64,000 nt of DNA from Dictyostelium discoideum (lineage: Eukaryota), in contig CM000150.2 in NCBI GenBank assembly GCA_000004695.1, positions 4,768,001 through 4,832,000 of the forward strand. The letters run 5' to 3'. Shown piece by piece: positions 27,840-30,577 of this stretch. A program made the position numbers and the translations under genes. The stretch's first letter is position 1. The number at the start of each line of letters is the position of its first letter. The notes beneath the pieces are model-generated. The model saw nothing but the letters and a program-made list of their open reading frames with translations, was not told the origin of the DNA and searched no databases.

Positions 27840-30574
27840 CTAATCCCAACTTTCTTCAATGGTTGGAATATCAGATAATGTATCTAATAATGGATTACCA
27901 CTAGAGTCAGTTGTTGATGTAGTTGTGGTTGAATTACTTGAGTTAACACGATGTTGTTCAATTGGTTCATTTGGAGCACTAGAAGCAGTTGAAGAGGCAG
28001 TGGTGGCAGAGTTGTTATTGTTGTTATTATTATTATTATTGTTGTTATTACTGCTGTTATTATTATTATTACTACTTGTAGTAGTATTATTGAATTTACT
28101 AGTGAATGGTGGAGTTGAAATTGTTGGATTTTCTTCATGAGCATTTGCAAGTCTATGAACTTCATCTTTAACAGATTCTTTAATATCTTCTCTGAGATAT
28201 TCTTTTAATTCATCATTAAATTCTTTTTTGAAACCATCACGAATCTCATGATTTGGATCATCAACACCCAATTGATTCTCCCAATCATCGATTTGTTCAT
28301 TGAGTTCTTCTTCCACTTCACTATCGGATAATTCATCAATGATTTCATCTATTTCTTTATCCATTTCCTCTTCAAATTCTTGTTTATTGAATTTCTTTTC
28401 TTGATTATTGTTTAATTCTTTTTCATTTTCCAATTTCTCTTCAATTTCATTCTCATCTTGAACTAAATCATCATCAATTAATGATTTTGCTTCTTTTAAT
28501 TCATTCTCTTGTTTTAATTCCTTTTCAACTTGATCTGATAGATCGAATTCATTCAAATGATTTAATTTATCATTTTCTTCAACTGGATCAAATGAGAATG
28601 AAATCTTTGGTTTTAATTCCTCTTCTTCTTCTTCCTTTGGTTCTTCTTCTGGTTCTTCATTTTCTTCTTCTTCTTCTTCTTCTTCTTCTGGTTCTTCTTC
28701 TTCCTCTTCCTCTGGTACAACTTCATCATTCATTATATTATTATTTAATAATTGAGGAACCATTACATCATTATCATCACCATCAAATTCTTGATCTTCT
28801 TGTTCACTTTCATCAAGAATTCTTCTTTTTAAAATTTCATTTTCAATTTCTTTTTCCAATTGTTTTTGTAATTTTTGTTCTTCAATTCTTTCAATTTCTT
28901 GTTCTAATTGATCGATAATACCTTGTTCATTTTCTTTTTCAATTTGTTGTTCACCAAATTCTTCATCATTATCTTCTTGTTCTTCTTGTTCTTCTTCCTG
29001 TTCTTCTTCCTGTTCTTCTTCTTGTTCTTCTTCTTGTTCTTCTTCTTGTTCTTCTTCTTCTTCTTGTTCACTTTCTTCTTGTCTTCTCTTTTTAATTTCG
29101 GTTTCAATTTCTTTTTCTAATTGTTTTTGAATTTCTTGTTCTTCTTCTTTTTCCATTTGACTATCTAATTCATCAACAATGTTTTGATCTTCTTTACTTA
29201 ATTTTTGATAATTTAATTCTTTTGGTTTTAAATCTTTAATTGTATCAAATGAAAGAGGAATATTTGCAGTACGTTTTGAAAGAATAGGTTTAACATCAAT
29301 TTGCATTGGTGATTGTTCAACTACACCCAAGGTATGAGATGGAAATTGTGGATGATGTTTCATTGCTGATTTTTCAACTTTTTTACTTTGTTTTGGACTT
29401 GCAATTGTTGATTCAGATTTTGATTTTGATAAATTGAAACGAACACTCTTACGAGGGACAAATGCATTGGCAGTTGGTTTTAAAACTGATGTTGATTTAT
29501 TCATATTTCTTAATTGTGTTAAACGACTACCACCAGTATTTGATTGTAATTGTTGTTGTTGTTGTTGTTGTAGTTGTTGAAGTTGTTGTGGTGATTGTTG
29601 TAGTTGTTGTTGTTGTTGATTTTTAACACCACCATGTTCTTTATAATAACTATGGATACATTCATCTAATAGAATTGGGAATAAATGTTTAATTGCTCTT
29701 GGAATGTGTTCTTTACCTTTAACATTTTTATTCCAAATATGAATCATGTTGAAATCCATTCCTTGTTTCTTTCTAATTGAAATTCCACAAATATCATCAT
29801 TATCTTGTAAATATGAACTAAATTGTTCACCAATAACGGATAAAACCAATTCATTCCAAACTTCATCTCTTTTTTAATTTAAAAAAAAAAAAAAAAATAA
29901 TTAATAACATTTTAAATTATTTTTTATTTTATTTATTTCTTTCTTAATCAAATAAACTTACGTTTGGTGTTTTTTAACCTTCATTACAAATTCACCACCA
30001 TCTTGATTCTCTTCCCAAATTGGACGTGTTCCTTTTTTAAATAGATGAAAGCATGAATTATTTGGTAATTTGGATAAACTTGGGATTATATTGAAACAAT
30101 TCCAAAAAGCCTTTTGTTTTTATTTTTTAAAAAAAAAAAAAAAAAAAAAATAAAATAAAATATATAAAAATAATTAATTAAAATAATAATAATAAAAAAA
30201 AATTAGTATTTGTTTATTTTATTAAATTATTTATAATTTTTATTTTTAAAAAAAATAAAAATAAACAGTAAAAAAAAAAAAAAAAAAAAAAAATTAATTA
30301 ATTAATACATTACTTGAATTGTTGAAAATGAATTTAATTGAGTTAATGCATTTAAATATTCATCAATTGAGGCAACTGAATTATTATTATTTGTGTAATG
30401 ATCTTCCCAAAATGACCATTCATTTTCTAATACTAATTCTTCATGAACATCTTTATGTTGAAGTGGTTGAGGATTTTCAGATGATAATTGTTGAGGTTGA
30501 TGTTCTTGAGCGATGAAAATTTGTTTCTTTTTTTTATTTTCCTTATCAGTGAAACTATTTAAAAATATTTCAGT

Positions 30575-30577
<3 letters not shown>
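27840..30577 (-). CDS. eIF4E-family cap-binding protein with a roughly 560-aa acidic low-complexity C-terminal extension. 3 exons: 30577-30314, 30110-29962, 29868-27840.
   Basis: The exons join as ...LENEWSFWEDHY...FSTIQ|KAFWNCFNIIPSLSKLPNNSCFHLFKKGTRPIWEENQDGGEFVMKVKKHQT|DEVWNELVLSVIGEQFSS...ICGISIRKKQGMDFNMIHIWNKN. These carry the conserved Trp positions and the (S/T)xxxLFKxGIxPxWED and GGxW motifs of eIF4E. The same exon then runs on through polyQ, EQEEE repeats and E/K-rich coiled-coil-like sequence to the stop at 27840. Confidence 0.78.

Follow-up and report, generated by a model that had tools for sequence, protein, structure and literature searches.

A class III-type eIF4E with a long acidic C-terminal tail in Dictyostelium discoideum

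The window analysed here (a stretch of 64,000 nucleotides from Dictyostelium discoideum contig CM000150.2, positions 4,768,001 to 4,832,000 of the forward strand) carries on its minus strand a gene of the eIF4E family of mRNA cap-binding proteins, which extends over three exons from 30577 to 27840. All coordinates given below for this gene and its parts refer to the minus strand. The coding sequence of 2442 nt starts at the ATG at 30577, right behind a long A-run, ends with the TAG at 27842..27840, and specifies a protein of 813 amino acids (aa). An earlier note on this DNA had placed the gene at exactly these coordinates and divided it into three exons, and the strings that it quoted (WSFWEDHY, LFKKGTRPIWEE..GGEF, and HSYYKEHGG) were all found in the translation. 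Exon 1 (30314..30577) encodes aa 1-88 and includes the start ATG, an N-terminal motif, and W54, W57, Y74, and I87, the equivalents of human eIF4E1 W43, W46, W56, and V69, respectively. Intron 1 (30111..30313; 203 nt, GTAATG...AAAAG, 3.9% GC, phase 0) separates it from exon 2 (29962..30110; aa 89-138), which contributes W91 (W73, on the dorsal surface), W120-E121 (W102-E103), and the GGEF string, in which E128 and F129 stand for R112 and W113. Beyond intron 2 (29869..29961; 93 nt, GTAAGT...AAAAAG, 7.5% GC, phase 2, found at the same position in four orthologous loci), exon 3 (27840..29868) encodes aa 138-813 plus the TAG, i.e., the rest of the core (W142, K172, and W183, equivalent to W130, R157, and W166) and, in the same open frame, the entire tail. 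The GC content of the exons is 26 to 31%, compared with the far lower values of the two GT..AG introns, and both splice junctions (STIQ/AFWN and KKHQT/DEVW) agree with independently annotated orthologue proteins. The eIF4E domain itself (29634..30430; aa 50-216) is split by both introns and bears a class III signature.

The eIF4E fold perceived by the earlier note is borne out by profile and structure searches, the N-terminal 216 aa adopting the cupped-hand architecture of the family. Pfam PF01652 (IF4E) matches aa 50-194 with an E value of 3.9e-35 and 121.4 bits (cutoff, 28.7), and 40 eIF4E chains in PDB match at E<0.01. The best of them is mouse eIF4E3 (4b6u), aligned over aa 50-216 with E=4e-25 and 92 bits, whereas 4EHP (~3e-19, 73 bits) and class I eIF4E (1e-15 to 4e-17, ~59-66 bits) score lower. 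In similarity scores, eIF4E3 leads 4EHP by ~20 bits and eIF4E1 by 26-33 bits. Joshi et al. (PMC1260017; also PMC3388326) defined class III eIF4E by retention of W43 together with Cys or Tyr in place of W56, and described it as confined to metazoans. Both features are present here, as W54 and Y74. The former is invariant in all dictyostelid orthologues, and the latter lies opposite Cys52 of mouse eIF4E3 in the HMMER alignment to 4b6u; Tieghemostelium lacteum has Phe at the W56 position. The domain is therefore not "canonical," as first described, since it carries Tyr74 for W56, Phe129 for W113, and Glu128 for R112. These equivalences were read from a 148-sequence alignment anchored on human eIF4E1, the numbering of which agrees with W43/W56/W73/W102/W166/S209. 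By the same map, the residue set of the cap pocket (an aromatic at W56, plus W102, E103, and W166) is complete as Y74, W120, E121, and W183, so that the cap-binding tryptophans whose absence would have spoken against the original description are in place, with the W56 position being aromatic as Tyr. The m7G pocket thus appears intact, with a putative Tyr74/Trp120 sandwich, Glu121, Trp183, and a basic R170-K171-K172 loop, and the dorsal Trp91 is also present. Because the W56 position holds Tyr and not Cys, a conventional aromatic sandwich would be expected, and we infer from these residues that the protein binds the cap.

An exhaustive phmmer search with the Acytostelium orthologue as the query against 1.8 billion representatives returned the dictyostelids first (E<=1e-69) and then, from 1e-41, a broad tier whose members have 190-300 aa. 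At the positions of W43 and W56, the 146 nearest representatives have W/Y in 97 cases, W/F in 9, and W/C in 3 (W43 with Y, F, or C at position 56 in 109 of 146); W/W is found in 5, and 13 are class II-like. Nearly all of the 146 are devoid of a basic residue at R112, and Glu128 therefore fits the group. The nearest named animal relative is an "eIF4E type 3" of a sea spider (Nymphon, an arthropod), and amoebozoan relatives among the representatives include transcripts of Vermistella, Mastigella, and Nematostelium. Judged by these signatures, the core is a class III-type eIF4E, a type that is widespread beyond animals. The matches further suggest that the gene is the dictyostelid orthologue of the class III mRNA cap-binding protein, the similarity scores and the shared signature being compatible with monophyly with metazoan eIF4E3. 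Upstream of the core, the protein has an N-terminal arm of ~49 aa with a conserved basic motif, KKKKQIFIAQEH (aa 15-26; 30500..30535), which all ten orthologues share and human eIF4E1 lacks. The version of this motif in group-2 species, KVKFVAQEK, is by chance RVxF-compatible.

Translation of the tail was judged by comparative genomics, with six orthologous loci compared. It could be argued that the tail is removed by an overlooked intron or by premature termination in the mature transcript, which would leave a protein of ~220 aa, the long reading frame being an annotation artefact; four weak donor-like hexamers do occur in exon 3. However, scanning of exon 3 in 60-nt windows revealed none with <15% GC and no intron-like segment, and none of its GT..AG candidates has <12% GC or an intron-like composition. 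Specifically, neither a donor nor an intron-like segment follows HSYYKEHGG, the site at which the earlier note had suggested looking for a splice event that skips the tail. Its statement that the last exon runs on without an intron or stop holds in full: the exon is continuous with the domain over 675 stop-free codons, compared with a maximum of 118 in 2000 shuffles, whereas the five alternative frames of the same stretch contain 24 to 121 stops. In four further Dictyostelium loci (D. citrinum, D. dimigraforme, D. firmibasis, and D. purpureum), the last exon begins at the same phase-2 position before DEVWNEL and is equally unbroken to its stop. The ratio of nonsynonymous to synonymous substitution rates (dN/dS; NG86) for the tail is 0.33, 0.20, and 0.24 against the three closest species (503-541 aligned codons), i.e., below 0.35 throughout; the core part within exon 3 yields 0.04-0.08 in the same comparison. 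All 36 of 36 indels in an independent nucleotide alignment are multiples of 3. Finally, dN is ~0 over the 27 C-terminal residues, so translation must stay in frame from the core through to the end, and 9 of 10 species keep the C-terminal motif in the reading frame of the core. This pattern of substitutions and indels indicates that the tail is translated and is under purifying selection, and that the locus is a genuine gene of discoideum-group Dictyostelium, probably expressed as written. The hidden-intron alternative is largely refuted by this comparison and close to excluded, which makes an artefactual tail scarcely credible, although an additional minor isoform may exist. Collectively, we are highly confident that the gene encodes a real class III eIF4E with a translated tail.

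The tail comprises 597 aa after ...YYKEH (593 after ...GGVK), which exceeds the 560 aa of the earlier estimate, and has a net charge of -108. It contains 21.8% Glu and 6.7% Asp, acidic residues amounting to 28.7% versus 10.3% basic ones, and some 50-aa blocks reach charges of -26 to -32. The polyQ, (EEEQ)n, E/P-rich, and E/K blocks already noticed are all there, along with a polyN/S/T run. The description of the tail as acidic and low in complexity stands as regards its acidity, but is incomplete in that the tail also holds conserved motif islands and long predicted helices. From the core outward, the first element is a polyQ tract (29544..29621; aa 221-246), a CAA microsatellite whose length differs between species. 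It is followed by the basic conserved island GSRLTQLRNMNKSTSVLKPTANAFVPRKSVRFNLSKSKSES (29409..29531; aa 251-291), the slowest-evolving part of the tail, which is kept as far as Polysphondylium violaceum; dN is 0.03-0.06 over aa 259-317 around this island, and the charge over aa 251-300 is +10. Within the island lie a PAM2-like motif, SVLKPTANAFVP (29454..29489; aa 265-276), which overlaps a SILK-like SVLK, and an RVxF-like motif, RKSVRFN (29433..29453; aa 277-283). Next come two long predicted charged helices (28794..29195; aa 363-438 and 448-496; predicted local distance difference test score [pLDDT], 74-87) that represent an internal duplication built on QKQLEKEIExEIxKRR..ESEQE, the first of them including the (EEEQ)n array. 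An acidic, Pro-punctuated disordered segment (28587..28793; aa 497-565; pLDDT <50) with a GAA-rich repeat (28617..28716 in Tandem Repeats Finder [TRF]) leads to the conserved block KPKISFSFDPVEEND and three predicted helices (28134..28586; aa 581-628, 633-671, and 679-716; dN, 0.03-0.08; pLDDT, 66-89), a region that includes DELSDSEVEEELNEQIDDWENQLGVDDP and ELKEYLREDIKESVKDEV. The fastest-evolving part is an N/S/T-rich disordered segment (27891..28133; aa 717-797; dN, 0.27-0.37; pLDDT <50), and the protein closes with the conserved C-terminal motif LLDTLSDIPTIEESWD (27843..27890; aa 798-813; dN ~0). The tail stretches also include ISFSFDPVEENDK and DGFKKEFNDELK.

Conservation is concentrated in four islands, namely, GSRLTQLRNMNKSTSVLKPTANAFVPRKSVRFNLSKSKSES, KPKISFSFDPVEEND, DELSDSEVEEELNEQIDDWENQLGVDDP...ELKEYLREDIKESVKDEV, and the C-terminal LLDTLSDIPTIEESWD, in which dN does not exceed 0.08 over a dS of 0.3-0.7. 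In 9 of the 10 orthologues, the final 11 residues contain a D-x-P-[TA]-[IL]-E core, which is internal in P. violaceum, and the helix motif [LI]EKE[IV]ExEI recurs in every species. AlphaFold2 applied to the last exon of the window with a 10-sequence alignment gave a mean pLDDT of 55.6, with helices at aa 363-438, 448-496, 581-628, 633-671, and 679-716 (block pLDDT, ~66-89) and values below 50 at aa 218-362, 494-565, and 717-813. The model of the D. citrinum orthologue (8-sequence alignment) exhibits a similar tail pattern, with a core pLDDT below 50. The predicted architecture of the tail is thus one of long charged helices joined by disordered linkers. When four segments of the tail were scanned against Pfam with E values up to 10, only noise was returned, with no family and no PAM2. 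The duplicated helix unit ends twice in E[IL]xKRR (EIKKRRQEE and EILKRRIL; 28669..28686 and 28972..29195), and its KKRR, conserved in Dictyostelium species, fits the minimal monopartite nuclear-localisation pattern. Mammalian eIF4E3 is both nuclear and cytoplasmic (PMC3674077).

Homology searches identified long-tailed orthologues of 793, 759, 752, 724, 682, 627, and 515 aa in D. citrinum (two assemblies), D. dimigraforme, D. firmibasis, D. purpureum, P. violaceum, and Heterostelium album, and further orthologues in Acytostelium subglobosum (302 aa) and T. lacteum (453 aa). Their public annotations read "hypothetical protein" or "eIF4E member 3," and literature searches retrieved no paper on Dictyostelium eIF4E3 or on a long-tailed eIF4E. 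All ten dictyostelid proteins have tails, of 88 to 597 aa and net charges of -10 to -108: 88 aa and -10 in Acytostelium, 236 aa and -12 in Tieghemostelium, 305 aa and -18 in Heterostelium, 413 aa and -37 in P. violaceum, 463 aa and -48 in D. purpureum, 505-578 aa and -56 to -73 in the close relatives, and 597 aa and -108 in the window protein. Among the 146 nearest representatives, the median extension past the core is 19 aa, and those longer than 290 aa are confined to the dictyostelids and four other proteins, in keeping with the initial remark that so long a tail is unusual in the family. In sequence terms, the tail is a lineage-specific trait of the dictyostelids. It rose from ~90 aa, as in Acytostelium, to ~600 aa by internal duplication and in-frame expansion of trinucleotide and 12-nt repeats. 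The duplication (aa 363-417 and 450-505) scores 142 versus 71±8 in shuffles, and TRF detects a 12-nt array for (EEEQ)n (28972..29080) as well as GAA-rich, CAA, and AAT/AAC arrays. Between the two D. citrinum assemblies, the number of in-frame repeat units varies, with a difference of 34 aa overall, which implies that the tail is length-polymorphic within a species; specifically, P0001 and P0002 are distinguished by the length of the polyQ tract and by an in-frame insertion of repeats that spans 24 aa (KEEEQEVQKPIDKEGEQEVQKPID; alignment columns ~420-445).

The gene environment is conserved as well. A multi-exon glutaredoxin gene (27072..27581 and beyond, plus strand) lies convergent to and directly downstream of the eIF4E gene in the window, and the same downstream neighbor is present in all six dictyostelid loci compared, including those of Heterostelium and P. 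violaceum; this shared neighbor indicates that the loci are truly orthologous. The glutaredoxin-eIF4E microsynteny is unusually deep. A RING (zf-C3HC4_3) gene (25277..26092, minus strand) is common to those group-4 Dictyostelium loci whose flanks show it (L001-L003, not L004), and an FAD-linked oxidase gene (32545..33807, plus strand) is common to the D. citrinum locus (L002). The eIF4E gene is flanked by homopolymer A/T runs, with ~60 A past the stop region (27650..27830) and ~35 A before the ATG (30578..30625). Such long runs are typical of intergenic and untranslated-region DNA in Dictyostelium, and those flanking this gene could disturb the mapping of transcript reads.

A tail that grows in this manner could be mostly evolutionary baggage, i.e., a tolerated low-complexity appendage without a particular function, on a protein that simply binds the cap as other eIF4E3 types do. 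Expansion of trinucleotide repeats, encoding polyQ, polyN, and polyE, is seen in many Dictyostelium proteins. The four microsatellite or 12-nt arrays inside the tail, its variation from 88 to 597 aa across species and by 34 aa between the two D. citrinum assemblies, the fast evolution of the N/S/T-rich part, and the lack of a Pfam domain would all fit this explanation. It sits poorly, however, with a whole-tail dN/dS of 0.20-0.33 instead of ~1, with the low dN of the four islands, and with the retention of a tail in every dictyostelid orthologue. Moreover, motifs persist even in species in which little else of the tail can be aligned (P. violaceum, H. album, T. lacteum, and A. subglobosum). 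We therefore consider it unlikely that the tail is mostly baggage. In its milder form, that of mostly tolerated repeats with small functional islands, this explanation is the main rival of a docking function of the tail, with which it is partly compatible. The charge of the tail invites another interpretation, according to which it would be a polyanionic cis-regulator that acts as a nucleic-acid mimic or entropic bristle, shields the basic cap/RNA face or repels nonspecific RNA, and thereby sets cap affinity or partitioning into granules. The net charge of about -108, the excess of acidic over basic residues, the strongly negative 50-aa blocks, and the rise of acidity along the lineage speak for such a role. 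Yet net charge does not go beyond -10 to -12 in the A. subglobosum and T. lacteum tails, basic residues prevail in the best-conserved island, and the acidic runs are the least conserved in length, all of which renders a primarily electrostatic role improbable.

The conserved islands contain candidate docking motifs. The PAM2 consensus is LNxxAxEFxP (PMC7356810), and its anchoring pattern is phi-(P/V)-A-F-P (PMC6379680). The island GSRLTQLRNMNKSTSVLKPTANAFVPRKSVRFNLSKSKSES contains L-K-P-T-A-N-A-F-V-P, which keeps the PAM2 residues Leu3, Pro5, Ala7, Phe10, and Pro12 and matches 6 of the 8 positions of the consensus, with Lys for Asn at position 4 and Ala for Glu at position 9 as deviations. The anchoring pattern is found in the window protein and four close species, and a relaxed PAM2 pattern in seven species and in 0.1% of shuffled tails. 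At the other end of the tail, the C-terminal P[TA][IL]E occurs in 0.04% of shuffles. The C terminus of Hsp70 is PTIEEVD, which the PTIEE of the window protein resembles. A TPR-clamp ligand of the Hsp70/Hsp90 EEVD type was nonetheless rejected, because the last residues vary among the orthologues (ESWD, EEEEW, EEDD, EKI, and DIYE) and the P. violaceum motif is internal. Similarly, the 4E-binding motif YxxxxL-phi is absent from all orthologue tails, and self-binding or 4E-BP-like behavior of the tail was rejected.

The island GSRLTQLRNMNKSTSVLKPTANAFVPRKSVRFNLSKSKSES could instead serve protein phosphatase 1 (PP1), since the SILK-like SVLK is followed ten residues on by the RVxF-like KSVRF. The general form of RVxF used for comparison is [RK]-x(0,1)-[VIL]-{P}-[FW]. 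By this account, the protein would be a phosphatase-targeting subunit that docks PP1 to cap-bound messenger ribonucleoproteins (mRNPs) for dephosphorylation of translation factors, e.g., eIF2-alpha. The KKVAF motif of yeast eIF2-gamma is a precedent for PP1 docking. Conservation extends to 7 species for K[ST]VRF (KSVRF/KTVRF) and to 6 for SVLK; a KKHVSF occurs in T. lacteum, and the N-terminal arm of the group-2 species carries KVKF. A SILK-like element followed by RVxF within 30 residues arises in 0.06% of shuffles. On the other hand, 40% of shuffled tails contain an RVxF on its own, Val stands for Ile in the SILK-like element, which P. violaceum has lost (SALR), and these patterns were picked post hoc. 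PP1 targeting as the role of the protein is hence quite unlikely.

As the best overall account, we propose a cap-bound adaptor that uses its tail to dock partner proteins, a view toward which the balance of evidence tips slightly. A subset of mRNAs would be held at their 5' caps by the core and supplied with partner proteins by the tail, acting as a flexible docking arm. For the tail taken by itself, a function as a partner-docking scaffold is evenly poised. The leading candidate partner is the poly(A)-binding protein (PABP), which might be recruited through the PAM2-like LKPTANAFVP to form a cap-eIF4E-PABP-poly(A) bridge; by analogy with known PAM2 proteins it is a tentative candidate, and the assignment is probably wrong. 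Docking of PP1 through SVLK and KSVRF would be the alternative use of the same island, and one or more additional partners are implied by the D-x-P-T-I-E at the C terminus. The label "specialised translational regulator," which the earlier note suggested for the protein, likewise remains an inference.

Several observations weigh against the docking-adaptor proposal. Expression of the full-length protein is deduced from comparative genomics only, and both AlphaFold models are poor overall (pLDDT, 47 and 56; 8-10 sequences) and uninformative on contacts between tail and core. About one-fifth of the tail is plain microsatellite and possibly near-neutral selectively. In the core, Glu128 at R112 and the loss of H37/P38 and L131 could weaken binding of the cap phosphates or of eIF4G. 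As for the motifs, the strict ELM-style PAM2 regular expression ([NS] at position 4) matches in no orthologue, the window protein having Lys in place of the turn-stabilising Asn/Ser; Ala7 is Ser in D. purpureum and P. violaceum; and Pfam PAM2 gives no match in the tail segments. T. lacteum, H. album, and A. subglobosum, which represent three deeper-branching genera, lack the PAM2-like island; the island therefore does not reflect an ancestral role of the tail, and PABP docking, if real, was acquired later. The frequency of RVxF in shuffled tails detracts from the PP1 motif. Furthermore, all motif patterns were chosen after the sequence had been seen, and the shuffle frequencies are indicative and not true probabilities.

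The boldest version of the docking-adaptor proposal is that, on the discoideum/violaceum branch, a class III eIF4E independently became a self-contained closed-loop factor, the arm of which binds PABP through a variant PAM2, and perhaps PP1 and, by way of the C-terminal D-x-P-T-I-E, a third partner, so that a subset of mRNAs is circularised or regulated without eIF4G. We regard this scenario as speculative and rather unlikely. If true, it would assign a mechanism to a nonmetazoan eIF4E3 for the first time and would parallel Leishmania eIF4E4 by convergence. Class III is the least understood of the eIF4E classes and has been described as metazoan-only, whereas here it is represented by an amoebozoan gene that is conserved and belongs to an organism amenable to genetics. 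The tail motifs render the function of class III eIF4E, and bypass of eIF4G by cap-to-poly(A) bridging, testable in Dictyostelium, and the series of tails from 88 to 597 aa illustrates how disordered acidic extensions grow by repeats while short motifs stay fixed.

Among known systems, metazoan eIF4E3 (mouse 4B6U) is the best solved relative. It shares with the window protein the retention of W43, the replacement of W56, a nonbasic residue at R112, the lack of a recognisable S209 loop, and the size and order of the core elements. The vertebrate protein differs in having Cys at W56, with a one-sided, atypical cap contact (PMC3674077), in place of the Tyr found here, in invertebrate class III proteins, and in most of the 146 nearest relatives; unlike the dictyostelid proteins, metazoan eIF4E3 has ~200-230 aa and no C-terminal extension. 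With class II eIF4E2/4EHP, the second-best PDB match (E ~3e-19), the window protein has in common Tyr at W56, and 4EHP is likewise a specialised, partner-directed cap binder and not a general initiation factor. However, W43, kept here, is also replaced in class II (by Tyr, Phe, or Leu), and 4EHP has no long tail and uses separate adaptor proteins.

In Leishmania eIF4E4, a PAM2 motif (MNPNATEFMP) in a disordered extension binds the MLLE domain of PABP1 to scaffold a cap-eIF4E-PABP-poly(A) bridge (PMC6379680). Leishmania/Trypanosoma EIF4E4 (and EIF4E3) thus resemble the window protein in combining an eIF4E core with a long disordered extension, and the EIF4E4 PAM2 has its possible counterpart in LKPTANAFVP. 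In the trypanosomatid proteins, by contrast, the extension is N-terminal and of ~150-200 aa, compared with a C-terminal, strongly acidic one of ~600 aa here, the cores are not of class III, and the window motif deviates at positions 4 and 9. The likeness to EIF4E4 is therefore best taken as a functional analogy, and any resemblance would be convergent. Three protist eIF4E-family proteins (P0112, P0130, and P0135) have a class III-like W/Y signature and C-terminal extensions of 290-420 aa, but their tails are basic, S/R/K-rich, and without sequence similarity to the dictyostelid acidic tail. A hydrophobic stretch of ~20 aa lies at their extreme C termini (e.g., ...YLNIFIVLFVTFSFIYCYQTYVR), one of the three being backed by an MMETSP transcript, and these proteins look like tail-anchored, membrane-tethered cap-binding proteins.

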